Source: Blasia pusilla (taxonomy: Eukaryota). From it: DNA of 64,000 bases. Within the stretch, counting starts at the first letter, position 1, and each line of letters starts with the position of its first letter. This document shows positions 1 to 17,730 of the stretch, piece by piece. The stretch covers positions 38,502,001 to 38,566,000 of the forward strand of contig CM114271.1 of the NCBI GenBank assembly GCA_050084515.1, given 5' to 3'. Below the pieces are notes generated by a model. The model saw only the letters and a list, made by a program, of their open reading frames with translations. It made no database searches and was not told where the DNA came from. A program made the translations under genes and the position numbers.

Positions 1-2859
1 GTGGAAGTAGGTAACACATTCAATTTATTTTCTTGTGTTACTATATTTAAAGAGTTATGCTCTACAAGAGTGTAATAAGCGATGATTGTTCTTTTTTTTG
101 CTCTTTTTTTGCCTATGATATACCATTTATCTATTCTTGGCATGAAATTACTGCTTTCGGAAAATAGAATTTTCTACAATCAACATACATTAGAAGAAAA
201 GTATGGTTTTTTGACTCAACAACAAATTACTTGTGAAAAAATGACCCAAATTTCAATTGGTTGGATTAATTTCATCTTCTAACTTACCAAACTAATACCA
301 TCGAGTTGGATGATTTCATGGAGGAGTTTGATAGTTGGTGCGATGCATAGAGGATGCAGAACCAGCAGAGATTCAACCCCTATATGGCGTGGAAGGGACT
401 TTTTCAGCATCTAGAGGGCCCTTCCATGGATGATTACCACGAGTTTTGGATTCTCCATGAGGTAGAGATGGAGGCATGGAGACTATTTTGGTCTCCAAGA
501 TATGTGTCCCTCACAGGGCATGCGATGCATGATGTGGCGGCTGCAGTAGCACCCACTAACCCCACAGAGGAGACACTTGGAGGAGTTGTTGACTTGAGTC
601 TTATGAGTGTGACCAGCCGAGTACCACCTGCGTTCAACCCATTGGTTGAACGTTCAACCTAACAGTTGAGAGAGTTTTTGAGAGGTCTATGCATGGCTCT
701 GATGGTTGATCACAATGACTCATGGTGTGACAGAGGCGCAAGCGGTTCAGTTCTGGTATGCGATACTAGACCGCGAGTTGCATAAGACAGTGTGAGATGC
801 AACTCTCTTACATGTTGGTTCGCCTACTCTCAAGTTTTTATTTTTGTTGGCGGAGTGCATTGAGCTCAACATACTTGAGAGAGTTTTGATGACAGGCATG
901 TCATCTTCCAGGGAGACCACACAAGTGACAGTTTCTCCATGAGTGCCGCAACGCACTACTCAAGATAGAGTCATGGGACCGAGGGCTACGGGAGGATACC
1001 AAGAGCCACGACCACGACCAGTTCAGTCATACGCTGGGCAGCAAGGCTAAGGTATTTCTTGTTGGACGTGTAGAGGATCACATCGTCTGCGAGATTGTAG
1101 ATAGCAGAGTGGAGTGCAGGCAACACCATCAGCTGTATATGAGGCGGCCCAGGGGAGGCCACCCTTACCTCAGTGTAATCATTGGCAGAGATATGGGCAC
1201 TCACGTGAGAGATGTTTCGAGCTCCACCCTGAGCTATGCCTAGAGGGAGGTCGAGGACCTGGAGGTGGCAGAGGACAAGGTGCAGGTGGTCAAGGACGTG
1301 GTGAAGGCAAGATCCCACCACTAGCCAAAGCGAGTGCAACATTTGCATCAGAGGCAGCTTTGGCGAGGATTGCTCAGTTGGAGCAATGCATTCATGCTAT
1401 GACGGCACAACAGGCATCTACGTTAGGTGTAGGGGGCACGTTGACTTCCGGATCTGCTCGGGCCTAGGCAATGGCGGGAGATCTAGGAGGTATGGGATTT
1501 TTGTGCAACATCGCACAAGTGGATGCAGTGGTTACGAGAGGCGCGGTGAGAGCTTTTGAGCCACGAGGATCCGATGTGGAGTTGGATCCCAGAGGGGAGA
1601 GGCTTGCAGGCTGGCTAGACTTCCCCAGTCTTTCACATTGTCAGAGGCTCTTCGGACCCCAGCGATGGTCCCTAGACGGCCTTTGAGGAATGTTGTTATC
1701 GTAGATGCCGATGCAGTTAGAGGAGGGGGTGAGGTGACTACGTCTACTAGGCCTATGGAACATTCAACAGGGCCTATTACTAGCATGTTATGAGAGATGG
1801 CGACGGCTTTGTGTAGCGTCTCACTATTTACGGGTAGAGATTTTTTGACATATGGAGGTCGACCAGTTGAGGTTTTTTGGTTGGTGGCGATGCTCTGTGA
1901 GAGCGATGAGTTTAGTTCTTCTAGTGTTGAGACGCGCACAGGAGATGTGGCAGAGGTACCCTTGGAGCAGGTTCTCAGGATGAGAGCCATAGAGAGTTGG
2001 CATGCAGCAATGGCTAGATTGGCAGAGTTGCCAACTAAACCAGCGATAGAGGGTGCAACCGTCTCACCAGGAGTTGTTGTCTTGGACAACCGAGATGGAG
2101 TTTTCCAGTTGGTTGGTCCATCCAGAGTCATGTATCGAGTGCAAAGAGTGCTACTTGATTAGAGCACTACACCTTATGTTGTCGAAGGCGGCATGTGTAG
2201 CGATGGGATTGCAGAAGTGTGAGATCACTCCATGTCTATTCCATATTCAAACTTCACTAGGAGGCACATCCCTGACACAGTTCTTGACTCGCGATGAGAT
2301 TGTAGTGAGGATTCGACCCGATCATCCTACGAATAGTGCAATGGTGCGGACGCGAGCGGTTGTGACATCGGCCGAGTCTTATGATGTTTTGGTAGGGGCT
2401 ACCATATTGTATTCTCTCAAATTCACACTTGACTTTTGGGAGGAGACAACTTCCTATCGACCAAGTTGGAAATCAGGTGAGGGACGAGCCAGTCAGCTAC
2501 CCGTGCAGTATGCAGGGAAATTTGATGGTTCACTCTGAGGGTCAACCACAACAATTGTCGCTTATTGTGGCACATTATATTGGCATGGAGATTTAATGGA
2601 GGGGAATGCCGATGTAGAGGATATTCCTATAGAGGATACTCCTGAGGAGTGGCATGCGATGACGAGCGTGGCTACATCTGGTGGTGATACTTCTTCATCT
2701 TTGTGGGGAACGAGCATAGATTTGCAAAGGAGAGCAGACAAGCTTGTGAGTCAGGTGTGGAGCCGAGCCTATGCTCTAGAGCAAGATGGGAGAGATTTAC
2801 CACGTGCTCTAGGAGTGGAGACATTGACACCCTTGGACACCATACCGATTGTGTGGCAG

Positions 2860-3470
2860 TATCCTGAGGAGGGTGTACGTATACTAGATCTGTTTGGAGG
2901 GATTAGTACAACATTGGTTGCAGTGTTGCAGGCCAGAGTACAAGTACAACAATACTTGTATGTTGAGAGAGATGACACTGCACGTAGAGTCTCACTACAT
3001 CATGTGTCGAGACTAGTCCAACAATAGGACCAACAGTGATGTTGAATGCGGCGAGTGTTGGATCGTGCACACACCGTCCACGATTGTAGGGGACGAACTT
3101 TTTACCATCTGAGTTACTACGACGGGCTTTTGATGGAGTCCAAAGACCATTACTACTTACAGTGGATGCAATCTTGGATCTAGGGCGGCAATCTCAGGTT
3201 GTTACTCGTGATGATGTACCACCGTTGGCAGTGGCCAATCGGGTGGGCCAGTAGAGGGCAACATCGCCTACGTTGGTGAGTTTTTTTGTAAGGGAGGACC
3301 AGCCATGATATGGGATGACTAGGCAGGTACACTAGTGGAGCCCAACGCTGACGAGCGAGAGCGAGCTATGGGATTCTCTACAGGTACGACAGCGGTGCCT
3401 ATGATGGCACAAGCGTCTCGCACACAAGTAGTGGGTCAGGCTATGGACCTGAATTTTCTTACTTTGGTGT
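2860..3470 (+). pseudogene. DNMT3-like cytosine-5 DNA methyltransferase domain inside the Gypsy pol, internally deleted
   Basis: Motif I ILDLFGGIST (2881-2910), motif II YLYVERDDTA, motif VIII GPTVMLNAASVGSCTHRPRL*GTNFLP (from 3027), motif IX ERERAMGFSTGTT (~3353-3391), motif X RTQVVGQAMD (~3419-3448). PC and ENV motifs are absent at the frame break near 3025-3027. Confidence 0.85.
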
Positions 3471-3772
3471 TCAATCTTGGTTTGGCTGAGCAGAGATAGA
3501 TGCAAGAGGCGTTTGTGACATTACGTCCACTTTGCAGCGCAGCATCTACTGGGACAGGTGAGACACTGGCTGGGGGCGCGATGGTGATGTAGAGGCATCC
3601 ATGGACTTCATGGGACATGTTATGAGAGCATAGAGAGATGGGAGTTCATTTCGTTGATGCAGGACATAGTGGAGTGCAAGACATAGTGGTGTTTGAGTTG
3701 GGAGCGCATGTTGCTGCTCCAGAAGTTGCTAGTTAGCAACCACCACCCTCCCCTTCTCCAGAGGTCACAAGA

Positions 3773-5210
3773 GTGACTTGGGAGCCAATGATTGGTCCTA
3801 AGTTGACAGGAGCGCAGAGGAGACGAGTGTTGCAGTTCTTGTGGAAATTCACGGAATGTTTTGCATATAGTATGCACGACTTGGGTACGCTGAAGAGTCC
3901 ACGTATTTGGATCGAGTTGGATAGTGATACTCCTATCTTTCGACGACCCTACGCATATTCTGACATGGAGCGAGCCTTTATTCAAAGTAAGAGTCGAGAC
4001 TTGGCTGACACTAGATTGGTGGAGAGATCATTGGGAGAGTATGTATCTGCCAATGTTATGCCGGCGAAGAAAGACATGCACGGCCAATGGACCGATAGGT
4101 AGATGTGTGGGGATTACCGTCCTATCAATCTGCATACGAAGGCCAATCGCTATGCTATGCCTACTCTCGATGAGATCTTTGATGCGTTGGGGCATGCAAG
4201 GATCTTTAGTTGTTTGGATCTCCATGCTGGCTATCATCAGTGGCCCATCCGAGTGAAGGACAAGAAGAAGACAACATTTTGGGGGATAGATCCTTTCGGG
4301 AAGGATTGTTTGTATAAGTGGCGGTTCTTACCATTTGGGTTGAAGAATGCCCTTGCGGGTTTTCAACGAGTTATGGATAGGATTTTGGCTGGTTTGGATT
4401 ATGCAAGATGTTACATTGATCACATTATCGTCTTCAGTGCCACGGTTGAGGAGCATGAGAGACATCTGGAGGAGGTGTTTCAATGATTGCAGTTATATGG
4501 GCTCAAGTTACATCCAGGCAAGTGCAGGTTCTTTCATGACCAGATTGAGTACCTTTGACACAAAATTTATCGAGGGGGTATTGGAGTTCAACAGACAAAG
4601 GTGGAAGCCATAGCGCGCATTCCCCGCCCTACAGATGTGAGTCGAGTTTGAGCTTTCATGGGATTGGCAAACTACTACCATTGGTACGTGAAGGGCTTTA
4701 GTGCGATTGCGAAGGCATTCACTTTGCTAACTAGGTTGGACCAAGAGTGGTTTTGGGGAGATCATTAGGAGCGAGCATTTCAAGAGCTCAAGGACAAGTT
4801 GACGTCCTCACTCATTTTGAGAAGACCTATGCGTGGTCGTTCGTTCCAGTTACATATGGACTGGAGTATGTTGGGGTTAGGAGCGGTGCTCACTCAGAGA
4901 GATGATGAGGGGAAGGAGTTTGTAGTGGCATATGCGAGCCGCTCGAACAACGTTGCCGAGGCAAAGTACAATTCCTATGAGGGGGAGTGCTTAGTTGCAG
5001 TGTGGACAGTGGCCCATTTCAGATGTTATTTGTTCGGGAACCCTTTCACGCTCATCACTGATCATCAACCATCTGAGTGGTTGATGAAGTCTGACAAGCT
5101 TACAGGGAAGCTTGCCAGATGGTCACTCTTGTTGCAGGAGTATGATTTTCAGGTTGTCCATCACCCAGGACGTCTGAACCAGGATGCGGACGGGTTGAGC
5201 CATAACCCAT
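3773..5210 (+). pseudogene. Reverse transcriptase and RNase H of the Gypsy element (broken by stops)
   Basis: ORFs 3773-4102, 4103-4486 and 4799-5326 share one frame and carry standard Ty3 RT and RNase H motifs. Confidence 0.95.
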
Positions 5211-5569
5211 GCACGAGCCAGAGCGATGCGACTGGAGCGCGGTGGCATAGTGAGAGTTATGAGGAGATGGTGCCATGTTGGCACACATCTGCCTATTTGT
5301 GTATGTTGGCTATGTTAGGTCAGTAGGAGGCATTCACTCCAGGAGGGAGGTTGGATGGTGAGTCCTCACATCCAGATGCTAGTGAGGAGTCGGCAAGGAC
5401 CGGAGACATCCACGATGATGAGATGGTCTTGGAGTACCTACGCACTAGTGTCCTAGCAAGCACAGTGGGTGCTAGAGAGCGGGATCAAGTCCTACAGCGA
5501 GCCAAAAGGTTCGGGTGGGAGGGGACGCATGTGCTTCAAGTTTGGGACAATGGACGAGTGCGGATGGTG

Positions 5570-6327
5570 CCGCATCCTTCGCAGCGAGCACGAGTCGTGA
5601 GATATGCTCACGAGGAGTTAGGGCATCTCAGAGTCAAGCGTATGTATAGCTTGATTCAGATTTAGTATTGGTGGCGTGGTATGCAGACAGATGTTCATCA
5701 ATTTGTAGCCAGATGCATTCTATGTGATAGGGTGCGGGCATCCTTCAATGCTGCGACACCACACTTGTATCCTTTACCGATCATGGGATTAGGGTATCGT
5801 TGGAGTTAAGACTTTGCAGAGCCTTTACCATTGACGAGACGCCATAGTCGGTACGTGTTGGTCATGGTGGAGCACTTCTCCTAGTGGATTGAGTTGGTAG
5901 CGTTTCTGGATAGGTCGAGTGAGGGAGTGGCTTGTGCATTTCTTGATAGAGTGCTTAGTCATTTTGGCGCATCAGGAGAGGTGTTGACAGACCATGGTAT
6001 TGAGTTTAGGGATGACTTTCAAGCCTTGTGTGATGAGACACTAATAGATCATCATACGACTTCTCGAGACGATCCAGAGGCAGATGGTTTGGCATAGAGA
6101 GTTGTGCAGACTGTGAAGAGAGGATTGTGTAAGTATGGACTCCAAAGAGGACACTTGGGACATTGGGACTGGTTGGCGATGGGTTACCGCTTCAGTCGGC
6201 AGGCATCCTTAGCATCATTCTCACCGTATTTCTTGCTCTATGGGAGAGAGCCATAGTTACCATCGTCGATTCGACGAGATGTGGTTGAGGTACTTGACCT
6301 TGACGATCCAGACGTATGGGTGCAGAC
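5570..6327 (+). pseudogene. Integrase of the Gypsy element (zinc-binding region and DDE core), truncated at the 3' end
   Basis: AHEELGHLRVKRMYSLIQI*YWWRGMQTDV...CILCDRVRASF; YVLVMVEHFS*WIELVA; SPYFLLYGR. Similarity ends abruptly near 6327. Confidence 0.9.
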
Positions 6328-7250
6328 TCCCGGCTGCTCCGGAGTACGAGTATGACGCCAAACTGCTGGTAAAGCACAAAGATTTGCTGACACTCGGTTG
6401 TGTAACGTCTAATCGCCTGGGCAGGAATGGCTACAAGGCTACTTCGCTGTCACCGCCATTGTTTGGACAGTTTTGCAAGCATTTGATGACATTATTTTAT
6501 CCCTCTTGATCTTACTACCTAACAAATAAGCTCGTCAAGATGTGCTATATCCTTTGTCGACGGGCACGTACAAGCAATGTTGGAGGCGCTTCATCCGAGC
6601 ACGAAGGCATTCTTGTCTCCTTTTTTAATCCATCTATATATTCATAAGCAAGAATTGACGGCAAAGGAAGCGCTAGATTGGTCGCAGGTCATTCCCGTCC
6701 GCTTGCCAAGAAAGAGCGGAGCGGTCACTAGTGGGAGCAAGAAGTCACCTCCCATGCGAAGCAGCCCCAAAGCAACATCCGCATACTTCGGCTTCAGGGA
6801 AAGCCGAGGAGTTCACCGAATTGCGAAGACTAAAGCGTGGCAGGGTCAATTTCGAAACACCCTCGGAACCAGAACCCGCAACTCATGAGGACTCCAATGA
6901 GACGCCTCGTGCTAGCGATCACCGTCCTACACTTCGTCCCATGTCCCAGACAGCCAACGAAAATCTGAGTAGTAAAAATGGCTCACCCGGCCTAAAACTC
7001 CACTCATGAATCTACATCGGCATATCGAACCACATCCATCCTTTGCTATGAGGGAATCCTGATGCTAGCACCCTAGCTCTTATACACCCACACACGTATA
7101 TGCAAGAGAGGTGCTCCTAAGGCTCAATATGAGAACGATGGCTTGAGAAAGCCATCTCTCTCACTCTTATACCCTTCGGAAGAGCCAAAAGGGTCGTCAC
7201 CAAGAAATAGCCTTACCAACGGCAACCTACGTGCACAAGTTAGTAAATTA
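6328..7250 (+). other. Decayed coding-like segment joined to the truncated integrase, probably an accessory ORF of another TE
   Basis: Abrupt junction and composition change, followed by broken ORFs (GRNGYKAT..., FLSPFLIHLY...). Family not identified. Confidence 0.3.
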
Positions 7251-8800: not shown

Positions 8801-9159
8801 AAATTTTGGGTCCTACAATAACATCTAGCCTCCTTGATATCACCTCCTATAAGTACACAAACTTTCCAAGATGGAATCTCCCAATCTTTGGACTATAGCC
8901 TCCTCTTCCACGAATGAGCATATATTTCAAAGGATCTATGTGTTGAGCAATAACCAAGTTCTCAAATGCCATGGACATAACGCTATGAAAAATCTCCATC
9001 CTATAAGAATATGCTAGTACCTATATATGCATGCAGTCAAGATCCCAAAACCTCTATCATGTCACCTCAAATATTTGTCGATAAATTATGCTCGCTCTCG
9101 TGGAGCTAAAATTGCAGTGAAAATGACGTCAAGCATACATGCAAAGTGAAACGATATCA

Positions 9160-9660
9160 CATAACCAACTATGGCAATTGTAGGTCTCACACTCATTGCA
9201 AGTCATACTTGTGTAATACTCTCTTCACCGTCTCTACTACTCTCTTCACCAATCCATCCGCCTTAGGATGATCCCTAGATATGGTGTGCTCATATTTCAA
9301 TGCATGATCATATAAGGCTTGAAACTCTCCTCAAAGCCCGATACCCTGGTCAGTCAACACCTCTAAGGGTACATTGCAACAACTCAATACACAATCTATA
9401 AATATATAAGTTTGCCTCTCCCTCACTATCACTATTTGCTAGTGCTACCAACTCAATCCACTTAGAGATATACCCCAACATGACCAACACGTACCTGTGA
9501 TAACGCCCCAACAATGGCAAAGGTCTCGTGAAGTCTACACTCCACAAATAGCATGATCTTGTGATTGGAATGGGAGCATTGAAGGATTCTTGTACTCTTA
9601 TCACACACCATATACATGGCTACTACTAAATGTTGTTTTGCATACCACACCACCTTTATT
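9160..9660 (-). mobile_element. Second Gypsy integrase-core fragment, related to the element at 300-6327, in opposite orientation
   Basis: RVQESFNAP...WSVDFTRPLPL...RYVLVMLGYISKWIELVAL...SEG aligns with RVRASFNAA...WS*DFAEPLPL...RYVLVMVEHFS*WIELVAF...SEG at 5730-5930. Confidence 0.85.
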
Positions 9661-9674
9661 GAACATTGAGTAAG

Positions 9675-10008
9675 TTCATCCTTCCCAACGAGTAAATATT
9701 ATGTGATGTTCCCACTAGGACATTTTGGAGTAAAACGCTTACTCCAAGATGTCAAGACTTCTAGTGGGAACGTCACACAATATATACTCGTTGGGAAGGA
9801 TGAAGCATTACCCACACTCTACTATCCTCTTCTGCGAGTACTCCCGACAAGTATATATTGTATGACATCCCCACTAGGAGTCCAGACATTTTGGAGGAAA
9901 AACACTTTACTCCAAAATGTCCGGACTCCTAATGGGAACGTCACACAATATATATTCGTTAGGAAGGATGAAGCACCGCCCACACTCTATTATCCTCTTA
10001 TGCAAGTA
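9675..10008. repeat. Two tandem copies (~170-bp unit) of a ~130-bp near-perfect hairpin
   Basis: The left arm ttcatccttcccaacgagta...ttcccactag pairs with ctagtgggaa...tactcgttgggaaggatgaa (9675-9804). A second copy lies at ~9842-9965. Both are followed by the same tail cccacactcta(c/t)tatcctctt. Confidence 0.85.
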
Positions 10009-13087: not shown

Positions 13088-16000
13088 TCATGAAGAAAAT
13101 TCTTTCCAAGATCCATTGTTATCACCCTCTGAAAGGACCCTGACATCATCTGAGTCGTTCTTAATCCGATCAAAATGATGCAAAACTGCATTTTGCAGTG
13201 ATACCCGTAGTTTCTCACACTGCACAGCAGCATGATTTGGAGACCGAATTTCTGAAAGCTGTCGTAGTAGTCGGTCAACCAGTGTGTAAGGAAACCATAC
13301 GCCGCATGGTTGCTTCCGATTGATCACATCACCTGGCCTTAGCCTTGTGGAAGCTTGTAAGTACTCCAGCAGCAAGTAGGTGGCTTCCACATACCTCTCA
13401 TGATCAAGGTAAATTCGCAGTAGAGCAGCTGGATCTGCCACCCAACTCGAGGCATTCATACCTCTGGAGTCCTTACCCACCTTGAAAGTGTCGATCAGCC
13501 AGAGTGGAAGCTCCATGTCCCTATCCACGGAAAGTATGGTTTGTGCCACTGTAGCTCTAAGATTGGGATGAAACTTCCAATATTTCTCAAGTGAAGACTT
13601 CAGGGCTTGCCAGGCAGTCTTTGCTGCCGCACTCATTGGCAACTTAGGTTGGGGCCTGATCTCTGTACTCAGTTCTTGTGATTGTTCAGCGTTATCATTG
13701 GCAGAATCTGAAGCTAACGTCAATGCCAGCTGAAAGTCTTCTGAGAACTTGATAGGCCTACCTGATCCTAGTTGCTGCTGTAGCATGCAGCACTTCCTTG
13801 CCATCACCTCAAACACCTTCTCCAGCTCTCTCTTCTGTGATGATTCCTTCCAGAAGAGGAAAACAAGAGAAAACGCCATATCATATAGCCCATTCTGGAG
13901 TAACAAGAGCACAACCTCTGATGGTTGCATGTGTGGCCCCAGTGAAGAGTGCTTTACTTCAGCAAACAGAAGATGCAACCTAGCCAGAGTAAAAGCATGT
14001 TCTTTGACTAGCTGCTCAGAATCAAGGGACTTCTTTTCGGTATATGGGGCTGCTCTCCCATCAACTATTTTGCTCTTTGAGAGGTTGTCAGCAGAGACCC
14101 GCCGTCTTTTAGATGGAGACAACCACTCAATTCCACAGCTTACAATCCCATTCGAAGGCTCAACCAACTGCAAAGCATTGATGGCTGCAGCTAAGGCATC
14201 AAGCTCTTCCTGCAAGAGAGAGAGCGCTTGAGATCGAGACTTGGAGAAGCCCTGTTCCCGAATACTGAGGGCATACTGGTACATATATCCTGCAGCTCGG
14301 CCCACATTGTGATGGTGGATATGTAGAGAATATAGGAGCTTGTACAGACTCGCCTTGACACTCATATCCGAGTTCTGTGCCTTGATGAGAAGTTCTTCTT
14401 CAACTCTGCTCAGCAACCCACCATAGGGCAGCTCAGTGCTGCACAAAGCTTGAGAAGCTCTCTGATCACATAGAACAATTATAAACCGTCTGAGGCATAT
14501 ATCCTTGCTCTCTTCATCAGGATTGGAGATAATGGCACAATACGCATTCCCATACAGCTCCAAGTCCAGAGAGAACTTGAAAACATTGGCCCAGAGCCGA
14601 CCCTTGATAGCTGCTCCCACCACTTTCGAGTCCTTCTCAGAATTTTCAATCACAGAGATACCAACTGCTTCATCTACTTGCTCAAGAGCAGCATGTGCGA
14701 ATTGACAGGCACCTTCACTCAGATTGTATTGATCAAACAACTGCATCACCCATTCAAAATACTGGAGCCTCCAAGCCGCTGTTGCTCCATGACCTGGTAA
14801 CTGATGTTGTGGCCCTGTCACAAAGAAGAGAGATTGCAGCACCTTGTTGGCCTCCCCAAGACCTGATGCAGCTCTGAAAAAATATTGGATGGCATCTCCG
14901 ACATGCTTCTCTTTACTAGTCATTTCCAATACTGAGTGTGCCCGGGCAAGACAACAGATACCAAGAAGATGAAGACGTACACTCCATTCACAATTCACAC
15001 TCGCTATCCCTTCCGAAAGCTGCTGTGGTGTAGAAAAGTGTTCTACAGCAGTCAAAAAGCACTCCAGGCTACCATACTGTCCATGTTGGAGGAGAATAGA
15101 TGACAATGTTATTGCCCGTCTTGAGAAAGTGAGAGGGGAAGGATCTGAGCTTTCTCCAACCAGGAGCCAACCAACAAAGCATTTGACATGGTTATGCAAA
15201 GTGTCTGGGTTGGGCAAACAATCCTGCTGAAAGGTCTCCTGCGTTTGAGTTGTCTCAAGGAATGATGCTGCCAATATCTCTGCCAGGGCCAATTCTCCAG
15301 CTCCTAACCTTTCGGACTGAACTTTCTCCCCTCGAGAAACATCGATCTGCAATGAGGACAGCTGCAAGCTGCAATCCTCAGAAGGAGGAACTTCTGCAAA
15401 AGTCACAGTCAACCAATGAAGAAGAAGACTAACTGCCAAGCCTTCCTGCACCTGGGGTAAAATCTGAAGTTGAATTCTGGTAGCCTCACTGGGTGTGAGG
15501 CCAACCTGACCTTGAACCTTCACTAGGTGGCTGAGGAGTAGTAGAAGATCTCGAGCAGCTTCAAAATGAATCCAGGATATTTGCGAGGTCGCTTGAGTGA
15601 AGATCTTGGTGGGCACGCTCCCCAAAGGCACCACCATGGAAGATGCTGCCGGTGTCACTGACTGGGTAGAAAACACTAGATACTGAGCATACTTAGATAC
15701 TACATCCAACACTGCTTCCCAGCTCCCTGCTAAACCTCGCAGAATATGCAAAGACTGAGACATATGCAGTGCAAACTTCCTCTGCTGCTGATGCTGCGCT
15801 TGCATCTTTCCACGGATCTCATCCACACCAAAATCGAGACTCCCTAGGGAGCTGTCCAGTGGGTTGTAGCCTACATCGAGTATCCCTAGAAAAGTCTGAA
15901 CAAGAGTTTGCAGTGGATAGCTCGATGGCCTTAATAGGGCTTCATGGAAAACCCCCAGTGCCACATGACCCAGGCGTCGAGTAATATTCTCTGTACATCG

Positions 16001-17692
16001 CAATAGCGCAGTGATCACAAGGGAATCACCAGGGACCTCGTCCCAGTCTTGGGGAAGAGGCAGACTGAATTCCTCCACAGTGGATGTGATTCCGTTACAT
16101 ACAAGCTGCTCAAGATTGGTGAGTGAGCGAACTACAGAAACTGAATTCCTCCGTATCAATCCCACAGACCCAGTCGATCCATCAGTGAACAGACCGTAAG
16201 CAGTATTACTACGTTTCCAAGACTGCACATAACTGTCAGAGAAACTGATCCACTCATGCAAACTTCGCCTCGCGTTAAGAGGCTGAGCTTTAATGGAGGA
16301 TTTGATTTCCTTCCGTAGCCCATCCAAAGTCAAGGAACTGATCTCGAAGTCGCTGAGGTGTCTGCGTCGCATTTGTAAGACATCCTTGAGGGCAGTGTGT
16401 TGCCGCACACCAGGCTGCAGAAGCCTTCTGAGAAACAAGCTGGGAACTGAATCATCCATCATGTCGGAGGAGCTCAGACCAAGTTGATCGAGAGCAAATA
16501 GAAGGTTATCGCACGGATCTCTTGATCCCTGGAACAGCTGCTCTCCCACCAGAGACTCTTGCAGGCGACAACCTTGGACACTTGAGTCCTCCTCCATACT
16601 TGCCGATAACAATTCCACCTCCCCATTGGCAACTTTTTGGAGCACCCACACTTTGCCCCGGAGTAATTTGCAGCTGAGAACAGCTCCTTGGACAGGCACC
16701 GTTCTTACCAACGACACGTGACTCGGACGGACTCCACCATCGCCTTTAGTGGAGTGCAATGTACAAACAAGGACAGCAGCGGCTTCCACCTTGTCCGTCT
16801 CTGATGGCCCAGCATACCACAGGCCCAACTTGAGATCGTGTCCGACGACATCTGCGTCTTCTGCCCACATCATCTTGGGTGTAGAGCTTGCTAATTCTGG
16901 AGGAGGAGAAATTACTTGATGGAACTGACGATTTCGTTGCAGCAAGTCCCAAACCTTCAAGGCCCCATCTTCGTGGAATGCAATCAATACACTTGCTCCC
17001 GAAACCAATTTAGTGGTGAGGCTTCTCACTGCCGCAGCATTCTTCCCTCTAAAAGAAAATCCCCACAAACGACTCAGCCCACTCTCAACATCCTTGAGCT
17101 CGAAAGGTTGATCTTGGTGACTGCCAGCTTTAGAGCTGATGGGCACACACAAAATGGAACCATTCTGCCCTCCAATGCATAGCAACTCCGGAGTTGCTGC
17201 AAAAGCTGTCACCTTGCGAAGGCCAGCAAGCTCTGCAGCTAAGCTCAGCTCTGATGAGCTTTGGTATAGCATGCCAAACCCACTCCTCGAGGACCTGGCA
17301 ATCCTGAAGCTCACCGTGCATAGGACTCCTGAAGTTGTTATTACCATAGCTTCATAACTAAACCACTGGCTGTTGCCCATCTGCAAGAGTGTAACAGTTG
17401 CGAATGGGCACAGGGGAAATTCGAACGAGAGCCGTAGACCGGTGCTTCGAACCGCCTTGTCACATGACAGCTCCATGAGTTCCAAGGTGTTGGGATGGTC
17501 TTCATGAATCCGCCACACAATGTAAGGAGCTGATCCAGGTGCCTGAGAAACTGCAGTTCTAAAACCCAATCCCCCTACTGCCGTCGGAACGCATTCACTC
17601 AGTGCCCCACACTCTGCAGCAGAATCTGTCTCTGTTCTCACTGGAACCTCTGTCCAAACGGCTGCATCACTGCTCACCACCGCCACCTCCAT
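13088..17692 (-). CDS. NUP160: Nuclear pore complex protein Nup160, single coding exon, about 1534 aa
   Basis: Uninterrupted ORF with plant Nup160 signatures IKGRLWANVFKFSLDL, AYCAIISNPDEESKDICLRRFIIVL, YFEWVMQLF, LPLWL, DPAALLRIYLD and VWFPYT. The first ATG is at 17692 (MEVAV...); the ORF track start at 17704 is a TTG. Confidence 0.95.
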   Translation of the reverse strand: MEVAVVSSDAAVWTEVPVRTETDSAAECGALSECVPTAVGGLGFRTAVSQAPGSAPYIVWRIHEDHPNTLELMELSCDKAVRSTGLRLSFEFPLCPFATVTLLQMGNSQWFSYEAMVITTSGVLCTVSFRIARSSRSGFGMLYQSSSELSLAAELAGLRKVTAFAATPELLCIGGQNGSILCVPISSKAGSHQDQPFELKDVESGLSRLWGFSFRGKNAAAVRSLTTKLVSGASVLIAFHEDGALKVWDLLQRNRQFHQVISPPPELASSTPKMMWAEDADVVGHDLKLGLWYAGPSETDKVEAAAVLVCTLHSTKGDGGVRPSHVSLVRTVPVQGAVLSCKLLRGKVWVLQKVANGEVELLSASMEEDSSVQGCRLQESLVGEQLFQGSRDPCDNLLFALDQLGLSSSDMMDDSVPSLFLRRLLQPGVRQHTALKDVLQMRRRHLSDFEISSLTLDGLRKEIKSSIKAQPLNARRSLHEWISFSDSYVQSWKRSNTAYGLFTDGSTGSVGLIRRNSVSVVRSLTNLEQLVCNGITSTVEEFSLPLPQDWDEVPGDSLVITALLRCTENITRRLGHVALGVFHEALLRPSSYPLQTLVQTFLGILDVGYNPLDSSLGSLDFGVDEIRGKMQAQHQQQRKFALHMSQSLHILRGLAGSWEAVLDVVSKYAQYLVFSTQSVTPAASSMVVPLGSVPTKIFTQATSQISWIHFEAARDLLLLLSHLVKVQGQVGLTPSEATRIQLQILPQVQEGLAVSLLLHWLTVTFAEVPPSEDCSLQLSSLQIDVSRGEKVQSERLGAGELALAEILAASFLETTQTQETFQQDCLPNPDTLHNHVKCFVGWLLVGESSDPSPLTFSRRAITLSSILLQHGQYGSLECFLTAVEHFSTPQQLSEGIASVNCEWSVRLHLLGICCLARAHSVLEMTSKEKHVGDAIQYFFRAASGLGEANKVLQSLFFVTGPQHQLPGHGATAAWRLQYFEWVMQLFDQYNLSEGACQFAHAALEQVDEAVGISVIENSEKDSKVVGAAIKGRLWANVFKFSLDLELYGNAYCAIISNPDEESKDICLRRFIIVLCDQRASQALCSTELPYGGLLSRVEEELLIKAQNSDMSVKASLYKLLYSLHIHHHNVGRAAGYMYQYALSIREQGFSKSRSQALSLLQEELDALAAAINALQLVEPSNGIVSCGIEWLSPSKRRRVSADNLSKSKIVDGRAAPYTEKKSLDSEQLVKEHAFTLARLHLLFAEVKHSSLGPHMQPSEVVLLLLQNGLYDMAFSLVFLFWKESSQKRELEKVFEVMARKCCMLQQQLGSGRPIKFSEDFQLALTLASDSANDNAEQSQELSTEIRPQPKLPMSAAAKTAWQALKSSLEKYWKFHPNLRATVAQTILSVDRDMELPLWLIDTFKVGKDSRGMNASSWVADPAALLRIYLDHERYVEATYLLLEYLQASTRLRPGDVINRKQPCGVWFPYTLVDRLLRQLSEIRSPNHAAVQCEKLRVSLQNAVLHHFDRIKNDSDDVRVLSEGDNNGSWKEFSS

Positions 17693-17730
17693 TTTCCTCC
17701 ACAATCAATTCCACATTCACCAGACGTCCG

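Follow-up and report, generated by a model that had tools for sequence, protein, structure and literature searches.

The window, a 64,000-nucleotide stretch of Blasia pusilla contig CM114271.1, contains at 294-6328 on the + strand what is very probably an old, silenced, and non-autonomous copy of a Ty3/Gypsy LTR retrotransposon whose family bears a DNMT3-type C5 cytosine methyltransferase. The family is organized as gag, protease (PR), methyltransferase (DNMT), a conserved UAG stop, reverse transcriptase (RT), RNase H (RH), and integrase (INT). The element is a new land-plant member of the already known Gypsy-DNMT3 elements. Taken by itself, the copy in the window is unremarkable, decayed repeat DNA with 29 in-frame stops and several frameshifts. 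Its features are listed below (asterisks mark stops).

294-1599, + strand: decayed gag in frames 0 and 1, with a CCHC-type zinc-knuckle remnant near 1060-1100
1590-2535, + strand: linker and aspartic protease, with a frame change near 2164-2198
2539-2838, + strand: conserved spacer between protease and methyltransferase, frame 1, matching the residues before motif I in relatives P0001, P0002, P0037, and P0027
2839-3024, + strand: N-terminal piece of the methyltransferase, frame 1, with motif I (LFGGIS, SAM binding) and motif II (YVERD)
3022-3027, + strand: deletion junction and frame change, with about 111 profile positions lost, including motif IV (GWPCQG) and motif VI (ENV)
3027-3251, + strand: middle piece of the methyltransferase, frame 0, with the motif VIII region (THRPRL*GTN) and the target-recognition part
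3257-3499, + strand: C-terminal piece of the methyltransferase, frame 2, with motif IX (ADERERAMG) and motif X (RTQVVGQAMD)
3500-3733, + strand: C-terminal tail of ORF1, frame 2, with three secondary stops, matching the last ~90 residues of Marchantia P0173, P0117, and P0176
3734-3742, + strand: conserved ORF1 stop and its context, TAG CAA CCA, in frame with RT; candidate readthrough boundary
3737-4490, + strand: reverse transcriptase, frame 2 (Pfam RVT_1, E 2.6e-15 on 4103-4486)
4769-5323, + strand: RNase H, an intact 185-codon stretch (Pfam RT_RNaseH, E 1.1e-32)
5327-6328, + strand: decayed integrase, zinc-binding and core domains (Pfam Integrase_H2C2, E 6.6e-4, and rve, E 3.9e-5, both under the Pfam curated cut-offs)

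Identity and state of the element

The RVT_1 and RT_RNaseH matches, the weak integrase matches, and colinearity with relatives P0178 and P0246, whose tblastn alignments over the integrase reach 6313-6328, identify the element as Ty3/Gypsy. Colinearity with Marchantia P0114, P0179, P0182, and P0173 extends over the entire element (gag-PR-DNMT-RT-RH-INT). The gag of the element, which contains eight in-frame stops, is 40-62% identical over 294-650 and 670-1599 to Marchantia P0179, P0173, and P0182 (tblastn), and the zinc knuckle was identified by eye on the sequence. The active-site triplet of the protease is D-stop-S (VLLD*ST, about 2148-2168), where P0027 has LLDSGA. No Pfam protease family was found in the window protease piece; the region is colinear with P0027 and Marchantia proteins, and Asp_protease_2 is present in relatives P0102 and P0040. 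The RT shows 57-67% identity to Marchantia P0114 and P0134.

When positions 1-6600 were compared with the whole window, no LTR pair or other terminal repeats were found around the copy, and no second copy of the element. The sole further match was an integrase fragment at 9090-9544 (67% identity). Upstream of about 290 the sequence is AT-rich and unrelated, and the 5′ end of the element may be truncated. A search of sequencing runs returned five DNA rows with small shares (0.05-0.08), with no RNA row listed. The window also contains NUP160, which is 72% identical to Marchantia NUP160.

The methyltransferase remnant

The remains of the methyltransferase cover 2539-3499 and consist of three pieces in three frames. 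We built a family profile of 404 positions from 12 intact relatives, and hmmsearch placed the three pieces on this profile in the correct linear order (E 2.8e-17, 1.6e-21, and 4.7e-27). The frame-1 stretch 2539-3024, in whose spacer part (2539-2838) no Pfam family was found, reads ILDLFGGIS (motif I) and then YVERD (motif II). LFGGIS, at about 2884-2901, falls on the LFGGIG column of the family profile, and the N-terminal piece occupies profile positions 15-72 (hhalign probability 98.5%, E 3.8e-15, query residues 101-161). The middle piece reads GPTVMLNAASVGSCTHRPRL*GTNFLP (motif VIII region, target-recognition part), with an internal TAG at 3087 and a terminal TAG at 3252, and occupies profile positions 184-258 by hmmsearch (hhalign probability 97.8% for 3090-3251). 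The C-terminal piece reads EPNADERERAMGFSTGTT (motif IX) followed by RTQVVGQAMD (motif X), contains a small deletion and frameshift near 3285-3295, and occupies profile positions 275-345 by hmmsearch (hhalign probability 99.5%). Motifs VIII, IX, and X are canonical and non-permuted, at profile positions 197-207, 295-304, and 319-329. An initial annotation, made from the sequence alone, had located motifs I, II, VIII, IX, and X in canonical order and called the domain a DNMT3-like C5 methyltransferase. The translations and hmmsearch agree with the former, and the profile matches of the three pieces, with DNMT3A as the top solved structure, agree with the latter. The protease segment (2050-2535) and the N-terminal piece share frame 1, as it had stated, with one TGA between them.

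The PF00145 scan suggested at that stage gave no match at E<=1 for 2539-3027, 3090-3254, or 3323-3499, each scanned alone; a significant C5 methyltransferase match was obtained through the profile of intact relatives (hmmsearch, hhalign). PF00145 was listed for 8 of 20 relatives in one Pfam scan, six of these eight above the 22-bit cut-off, and for 14 of 18 in a second. Since the window pieces have no PF00145 match of their own, the identification rests on these intact relatives. A phmmer search with 2539-3027 against 1.84 billion representatives yielded 96 proteins at E<=1e-3 (best 3.9e-34). The resemblance to methyltransferases at the sequence level is far beyond chance. Colinearity with relatives rules out both a chance resemblance and the nesting of another element within this one.

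Profile positions 73-183, where the catalytic PCQ and ENV lie, are absent from the window copy (hmmsearch). The missing residues correspond to 1343-1447 in P0027, 245-352 in P0037, and 432-529 in P0114, and the PF00145 match of P0114 itself (460-529) falls inside this interval. Neither the Pro-Cys of motif IV nor the ENV of motif VI is found in the window copy, both lost in the same deletion. Because about 111 profile positions with motifs IV and VI are deleted, the window copy cannot be catalytic, and judged from its sequence it is a dead and inert relic. Methylation by this copy, which the initial annotation had envisaged for the element lineage, is impossible.

DNMT3 affinity and possible function of intact members

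Among solved structures, the family profile matched DNMT3A best (6.3e-26), followed by DNMT3B (about 1e-23), DRM (1.8e-14), DNMT2 (3.4e-11), and M.HhaI (2.8e-9). DNMT3A, DNMT3C, and DNMT3B range from 1e-26 to 1e-20, ahead of DRM, DNMT2, and the bacterial enzymes (1e-9), and by this ranking of profile scores, which is not a rooted phylogeny, DNMT3 is the C5 methyltransferase class nearest to the domain. The closest structures to the ESM Atlas model of relative P0094 are DNMT3A clusters (TM 0.61-0.63).

The catalytic motifs are widely kept among relatives. In the 145 full-domain relatives, drawn from 250 with any profile match, PC is present in 103, ENV in 102, HRxR in 133, ERE in 132, and all of them together in 85. 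GWPCQG is found in K. nitens P0246 and in 8 of the 12 tabulated Marchantia proteins (7 of the 9 spanning the whole domain), and the LENV of motif VI is kept in Marchantia copies. In these copies the methyltransferase motifs lie between protease and RT. The Marchantia P0173 cluster contains 18 members at a minimum of 90% identity, and five of the 15 members listed are 1278-1281 residues long and are located on chromosomes 4, 5, and V. The Marchantia ORF1s are multi-copy, keep all catalytic motifs, and look intact.

We tentatively propose that bryophytes may host a still-active Gypsy lineage in which a working DNMT3-type enzyme is made from the Gag-protease frame, before a leaky UAG (see below), and methylates the element's own cDNA before or at integration. 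The methyltransferase, once freed, would methylate new element cDNA, or target DNA at the integration site or close to it, with S-adenosylmethionine as donor. In the available portion of de Mendoza et al. 2018 (PMC5890265), cDNA or integration-site methylation is proposed for retrotransposon DNMTs in general from dinoflagellate DIRS elements, and de novo CG methylation by retrotransposon DNMTs is reported. If our proposal is true, every particle would carry the methyltransferase at Gag stoichiometry, and de novo cytosine methylation in land plants would have one source encoded by transposons, which would contradict the published claim that land plants lack methylase-encoding transposons. Such a source could add to heterochromatin, for example on the Marchantia V chromosome, where copies sit.

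An intact methyltransferase may instead not act on its own element DNA, its role being in RNA, in host loci in trans, or mainly in giving integrated copies the appearance of host heterochromatin, which would limit their expression and the harm to the host instead of shielding cDNA. This is possible but rather doubtful. The role is left open in the same portion of de Mendoza et al. 2018 (PMC5890265), where RNA methylation is raised for a LINE-borne enzyme. Placement in ORF1 beside a nucleic-acid-binding Gag would suit an RNA substrate, and the tRNA methyltransferase DNMT2 is among the weaker matches of the profile (3e-11). Against this, among solved relatives the DNA enzymes DNMT3A, DNMT3B, and DNMT3C are nearest by far, and the activity reported for retrotransposon DNMTs is on CG sites in DNA.

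A conserved UAG at the end of ORF1

The initial annotation described motifs IX-X and the RT as lying in one frame broken only by point stops. Both are in frame 2, but the TAG at 3734-3736 is the conserved end of ORF1 (gag-PR-DNMT) rather than a product of decay, a new detail. Its site coincides with the C-termini of P0173, P0117, P0176, and many environmental ORFs, and related loci have in-frame TAG CAACCC, TAG CAGTTA, or TAG CAATTA at the homologous site. The stop is kept while its flanks have diverged (APEVAS* vs PPLEEVS* and SPKVFA*). We compared 63 DNMT-RT junctions in related loci; 35 are single-frame, and a stop followed by CAA or CAG occurs at the homologous position in 12 of these 35. 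The available text of PMC5382211 gives UAG-CARYYA as the type I leaky-stop signal of tobamoviruses. The window's TAG CAACCA conforms to this signal; CAACCC, the context seen most often in related loci, differs from it at the last base. The UAG at 3734 is probably a leaky boundary between gag-PR-DNMT and RT-RH-INT.

It could also be argued that this TAG is one more decay stop in a family that normally makes a single uninterrupted polyprotein, given the 28 other in-frame stops in the element, 16 of which are TAG, and the single-ORF relatives P0178, P0183, P0185, and P0194, which have no such stop. We consider this quite improbable. The stop falls exactly at the ORF1 end of three Marchantia proteins and of Sphagnum-type loci despite diverged flanks, a Gln codon (CAA/CAG) is next to the stop in every case with readable DNA (the window and 12 loci), and in Marchantia, gene models fusing the methyltransferase with the RT leave out the stop stretch. 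Readthrough is not universal in the family, because the four single-ORF relatives encode everything in one frame.

With a leaky UAG, ORF1 (Gag-PR-DNMT) would be the main translation product of intact members, and some ribosomes would pass the UAG-CAR context and add RT-RH-INT. It would follow from such expression that the methyltransferase is made at the Gag level; it would then enter the virus-like particle within the Gag precursor and be freed by the protease. The conserved boundary predicts both the amount and the destination of the methyltransferase. The earlier assignment of the domain to the polyprotein is right in that the domain is integral, but it lies in the gag-PR frame upstream of a probable leaky stop and not in one uninterrupted pol.

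Spread of the family

Members of the family are present in both bryophytes and streptophyte algae, with matching sequences in Marchantia polymorpha, Klebsormidium nitens, Calypogeia, Sphagnum, Closterium, and Spirogloea. In the window, Marchantia, K. nitens, Closterium, and environmental loci alike, the methyltransferase follows the protease and precedes the RT. Colinear relatives confirm that this position, noted at the outset, is integral to the coding region, and the segment is carried by other family copies (Marchantia, K. nitens, and environmental loci). K. nitens P0246, which is 38% identical to the window across 1045 aligned positions, beginning at the C-terminus of the methyltransferase and continuing through the integrase, is colinear as well, consistent with the suggested relation to the Klebsormidium element (de Mendoza et al. 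2018). The suggested land-plant lineage also holds, for bryophytes only: the liverworts Marchantia and Calypogeia, the moss Sphagnum, and the window itself. No named vascular-plant protein was found among the 59 and 97 matches of two relative searches. Of 80 related metagenome loci, the 15 whose ORFs were listed are all decayed, and the set was used solely to compare stops.

In a domain tree of 151 rows (FastTree, without an outgroup or rows for host DNMT3 or DRM), the window groups with 10 Marchantia and 4 environmental rows in a clade of 15 (local support 100), and element architecture changes only twice (49 vs 82 rows). That a single Gypsy copy or its very recent ancestor captured a host DNMT3 fragment, so that the domain is not a family trait, is extremely improbable and was rejected: the window does hold a single, badly damaged copy, but the same order and homologous sequence are present in at least 10 Marchantia proteins, K. 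nitens, Closterium, Calypogeia, Sphagnum, and dozens of environmental contigs, and the domain tree tracks architecture.

Methyltransferase-bearing Gypsy elements have so far come from one charophyte alga and been assigned to that lineage, and a published evolutionary argument rests on the loss of methylase-encoding transposons in land plants. The window and its Marchantia, Calypogeia, and Sphagnum relatives show that these elements moved onto land, or into land plants, and are still present in bryophytes. Our search of open full text found no description of a methyltransferase-bearing retrotransposon in a liverwort or moss; supplements (e.g. of PMC5890265 and PMC12344493) may list such sequences. 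Because Marchantia polymorpha holds multi-copy, intact-looking ORFs, how a transposon benefits from a de novo methyltransferase becomes testable in a tractable land plant.

Comparison with known systems

KnitGypsy-Dnmt3 of K. nitens, as presented in the available portion of PMC5890265, and the window element are both Ty3/Gypsy elements with a non-rearranged DNMT3-type domain in the coding region. K. nitens P0246 (KFL_009030040), which we take to be a copy of the KnitGypsy-Dnmt3 family, has the order DNMT-RT-RH-INT, as in the window element. The hosts differ, a charophyte alga in one case and a liverwort, a land plant, in the other, and the same portion of the paper (de Mendoza et al. 2018) regards the domain as acquired within the K. 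nitens lineage. Unlike KnitGypsy-Dnmt3, the window copy has no catalytic core. The window family has the conserved in-frame UAG after the domain, of which that portion of PMC5890265 makes no mention for KnitGypsy-Dnmt3, and a DIRS-like terminal-repeat arrangement is reported there for the K. nitens element.

Gypsy elements of chlorophytes (Haematococcus, Scenedesmus, Monoraphidium, and Cymbomonas) encode a homologous methyltransferase with 35-43% identity to the query domain. Their order is RT-RH-DNMT-INT-PHD, with the domain after RNase H, whereas in the window element it precedes the RT, and the chlorophyte and streptophyte types separate on the domain tree with only the two changes. The DNMTs of Cymbomonas 'EpiLTR' elements are placed beside DNMT4 in the available text of a 2026 preprint (10.64898/2026.05.21.726589).

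The catalytic domain of animal DNMT3A/3B/3C has motifs I, IV, VI, VIII, IX, and X in a linear order identical to that of the element family. The element has neither PWWP nor ADD domains, its methyltransferase being fused to Gag and protease, and identity is low. Plant DRM, a DNMT3-derived de novo methyltransferase that the family profile matches at 1.8e-14, has permuted motifs, in contrast to the canonical I-II-(IV-VI)-VIII-IX-X of the window element.

The proposed ORF1 boundary shares the in-frame UAG of the tobamovirus type I leaky stop. The six bases after it are CAA CCA in the window and CAG UUA or CAA UUA in related loci L001 and L070; most related loci have CAACCC rather than CARYYA. Gammaretroviruses use readthrough of a UAG between gag and pol. 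Their boundary comes directly after gag, whereas that of the window element comes after the protease and the methyltransferase.

Structure of the Ty3/Gypsy element

Positions 294-6328 (+) of the window read as a single Ty3/Gypsy element with the following layout.

Features of the Ty3/Gypsy element (window coordinates, strand, feature)
294-6328, +, whole element (sequence reading)
about 2100-2535, +, protease region, upstream of the methyltransferase motifs
2539-3024, +, methyltransferase N-terminal piece in frame 1, with ILDLFGGIS and YVERD
3027-3251, +, methyltransferase middle piece in frame 0, with GPTVMLNAASVGSCTHRPRL*GTNFLP
3257-3499, +, methyltransferase C-terminal piece in frame 2, with EPNADERERAMGFSTGTT and RTQVVGQAMD
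4103-4486, +, RT (Pfam RVT_1, E 2.6e-15)
4769-5323, +, RNase H (Pfam RT_RNaseH, E 1.1e-32)
two pieces, +, integrase (weak Pfam matches, under curated cut-offs)

The motif positions and frames described in the initial annotation are correct: the motifs lie between the protease region and RT, in three frames. Self-comparison of the window found neither an LTR pair for the element nor a second copy, and upstream of ~290 the DNA is AT-rich and does not resemble the element.

Two other loci in the window were noted. A second Gypsy-type integrase fragment (9090-9544, -), on the strand opposite to the element, shares 67% DNA identity with 5801-6251 of the element and has no detectable methyltransferase beside it; it adjoins a cluster of short direct and inverted repeats (9675-10008; units of 44-102 nt, 83-93% matching). 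At 13091-17704 (-), an uninterrupted 1538-codon frame encodes a full-length NUP160 with six Pfam NUP160/Nup120 domains and no introns. Identity is 72% with Marchantia polymorpha NUP160, across the full length of the frame, against 66% and 65% with the NUP160 of two Riccia species, 64% with that of Calypogeia and no more than 47% with those of mosses, which identifies the source of the window as a liverwort. The lack of introns may be normal for this gene in the liverwort, or the frame may be an intact retrocopy lying amid repeats.

Homology and decay of the methyltransferase

PF00145, the Pfam model proposed for checking the domain, was not matched by any of the three methyltransferase-region pieces at E<=1. 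Searching 1.84 billion representative proteins by phmmer, with 2539-3027 as the query, returned 96 proteins at E<=1e-3 and 16 at E<=1e-10 (best 3.9e-34); one weak match, P0077, is an unrelated bacterial Ig-repeat protein. PF00145 was present in 8 of 20 matches scanned with Pfam, directly downstream of the part matching the window, and exceeded the 22-bit cut-off in six of these. We aligned 12 short, mostly domain-only relatives into a profile of 404 positions (A1), whose invariant columns include P-C-Q, E-N-V, H-R-x-R, E-R-E..M-G, and the Gly and Asp of motif X. The N-terminal, middle and C-terminal pieces match A1 in the correct order, at positions 15-72, 184-258 and 275-345 (E 2.8e-17, 1.6e-21 and 4.7e-27; hhalign probabilities 98.5, 97.8 and 99.5%), confirming that the C5-methyltransferase remnant is real.

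Profile positions 73-183 are absent from the window copy, corresponding to residues 1343-1447, 245-352 and 432-529 of the relatives P0027, P0037 and P0114. The P0114 stretch includes its PF00145 match (460-529), with motif IV (GWPCQG) and motif VI (LENV). The deletion junction is at about 3022-3027, where the frame changes; a further small deletion, near 3285-3295, also shifts the frame. Along the frame path taken from Marchantia alignments, the element contains 29 in-frame stops (17 TAG, 9 TGA and 3 TAA), and a stop interrupts the active-site triplet of the protease (D-stop-S). The observed/expected ratios, 0.62 for CpG and 1.55 for CpA, are as would be expected for a long-methylated, deaminating repeat. 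The window copy is dead, a relic.

When A1 was compared with all solved structures, 57 distinct sequences matched, led by DNMT3A (E 6.3e-26), DNMT3C (1.3e-24) and DNMT3B (about 1e-23), followed by tobacco and Arabidopsis DRM (1.8e-14 to 5e-13), DNMT2 (about 4e-11) and M.HhaI (about 3e-9). Vertebrate DNMT3A clusters are also structurally nearest to the ESM Atlas model of the relative P0094 (TM by query 0.61-0.63). Unlike DRM, the element has its methyltransferase motifs in canonical order. The domain had been called DNMT3-like, and this description holds as a ranking of matches, not a rooted tree, among sequences that do not include host plant DNMT3.

Distribution of the family

Named relatives come from Marchantia polymorpha (many proteins, e.g. 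Mp_4g09160, Mp_8g17980, Mp_6g11220, Mp_2g26090 and MARPO_0091s0058), Calypogeia fissa, Sphagnum jensenii, S. troendelagicum, Closterium, Spirogloea muscicola and Klebsormidium nitens (KFL_009030040). Tblastn of these and the other relatives on the window showed full colinearity. The Marchantia proteins P0179, P0173 and P0182 align at 40-62% identity over gag, protease, the sequence on either side of the deletion and the tail of ORF1, and P0114 and P0134 carry the alignment on across RT and RNase H (57-67%). The K. nitens polyprotein, P0246, runs from the protease region to the integrase, its 3′ part being 38% identical over 1045 aligned positions. On an unrooted FastTree domain tree of 151 rows, built without host sequences, the merged window pieces group with 10 Marchantia and 4 environmental rows in a clade of 15 (local support 100), nearest to P0107 (65% identity over 201 columns).

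Nine of the 12 tabulated Marchantia proteins span the whole domain; all nine have LENV and seven have GWPCQG. A tenth, P0134, which covers the core only, has GWPCQG and LEKV for LENV. Every catalytic motif is kept in at least four Marchantia proteins (P0173, P0116, P0117 and P0118). The P0173 cluster at 90% identity has 18 members; among the 15 listed, five have lengths of 1278-1281 residues and map to chromosomes 4, 5 and V. Full-length M. polymorpha copies include Mp_4g09160, Mp_5g06330, Mp_5g06860, Mp_Vg00370 and Mp_Vg00540. Across the family, 145 of 250 relatives cover the full domain, and 85 of these keep PC, E-x-V, HRxR and ERE. Judged from these comparisons, carrying the methyltransferase is a trait of the family, which is present in land plants, in agreement with the land-plant lineage proposed initially. 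No named vascular-plant protein occurs among the 59 and 97 matches listed in two relative searches, each limited to a capped shortlist of word-sharing candidates, which is weak evidence that the lineage is absent from vascular plants.

Several near-identical members of the Marchantia ORF1 cluster are borne by the male sex chromosome V (Mp_Vg00370, Mp_Vg00540, Mp_Vg00690 and Mp_Vg00480). We also observed a second architecture (P0190, P0184, P0206, P0197, P0214, P0126 and P0153), in which a homologous methyltransferase follows RNase H and precedes the integrase, often with a C-terminal PHD finger. Its hosts are the chlorophytes Haematococcus, Scenedesmus, Monoraphidium and Cymbomonas, together with many environmental contigs, and the two architectures (49 vs 82 rows) separate on the domain tree with only 2 changes. 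In several chlorophyte and Closterium elements (P0214, P0204, P0206, P0230 and P0093), motif IV reads GWECQ(D/G) instead of GWPCQG, replacing the Pro of the catalytic Pro-Cys with Glu, while the ENV-type motif VI is otherwise kept.

A conserved stop between ORF1 and RT

The initial annotation had read the frame from motif X to RT as broken only by point stops. This does not hold for the TAG at 3734-3736, which lies at the homologous ORF1 end of the Marchantia proteins P0173 (...PPLEQVS), P0117 (...PPLEEVS) and P0176 (...PSLQCVA). The window reads ...AAPEVAS, TAG, then QPPPSPSPEVTRVTWEPMIGPKLTG..., and the bridging Marchantia model P0182 picks up again at ...EEEWEPLIGSQITG; exactly this stretch is left out by the Marchantia gene models that fuse methyltransferase to RT. 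Many independent environmental ORFs have homologous ends 88-143 residues past motif X, with endings common within subfamilies, e.g. ...GGMNALSATK in four (close variants in four more) and ...GNGASSSN in three (close variants in four more).

Among 80 related metagenome loci, 63 methyltransferase-RT junctions could be assessed. Methyltransferase and RT share one frame at 35, and at 12 of these 35 the homologous place holds a stop with CAA or CAG directly after it (9 TAG CAACC(C/T), 1 TAA CAACCC, 1 TAG CAGTTA and 1 TAG CAATTA). The nine-plus-one CAACC group has the ORF1 ending ...ASPKVFA in common with Sphagnum jensenii P0156 and the unnamed P0113. In a further subfamily TAG CTCACC is found, at another position, and at L025, one of the same-frame loci, no stop separates methyltransferase from RT. 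Nor do all relatives share the arrangement: in four (P0178, P0183, P0185 and P0194) one ORF spans the junction. At the level of sequence, these comparisons show the stop at 3734 to be a conserved feature, not damage. The available text of PMC5382211 gives the type I plant-virus readthrough signal as UAG CARYYA, which the window's TAG CAA CCA fits.

Ten of these metagenome contigs (L002, L004, L005, L007, L015, L018, L021, L044, L048 and L059) contain decayed elements whose ORF1 ends in ...SPKVFA, ...FPKVFA or ...SPKVFV, followed by an in-frame TAG (TAA in L002) and CAACC(C/T). Such an ending, seen also in the Sphagnum jensenii protein, points to a subfamily of mosses that is large and old and shares the ORF1-stop-ORF2 layout.

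Proposed expression and comparison with known elements

We propose that ORF1 would encode gag-protease-methyltransferase, and that RT-RH-INT would be added by occasional readthrough of the stop; the methyltransferase would therefore be made at the Gag level and packaged through Gag. Intact members are predicted, most likely, to perform SAM-dependent de novo methylation of their own cDNA or insertion site. Both targets were proposed for retrotransposon DNMTs by de Mendoza et al. 2018 (PMC5890265), whose available text also describes de novo CG methylation by these enzymes. Less likely alternatives for intact members are RNA methylation, action on host DNA in trans, or self-limitation.

The same paper described KnitGypsy-Dnmt3 and placed its acquisition 'in the K. 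nitens lineage'; the words Marchantia, Physcomitrella and chlorophyte are absent from its available text. Later papers refer, with a citation to it, to 'streptophytes (Gypsy-DNMT3)'. No liverwort or moss report was found in the full-text literature, a coverage that leaves aside supplements and subscription journals. The Marchantia sequences are already in databases, since UniRef labels one of them 'DNA (cytosine-5-)-methyltransferase', but they are apparently undiscussed. What is new here is the land-plant occurrence of the already known Gypsy-DNMT3 elements, with the conserved boundary at a putatively leaky stop as a modest new structural point.
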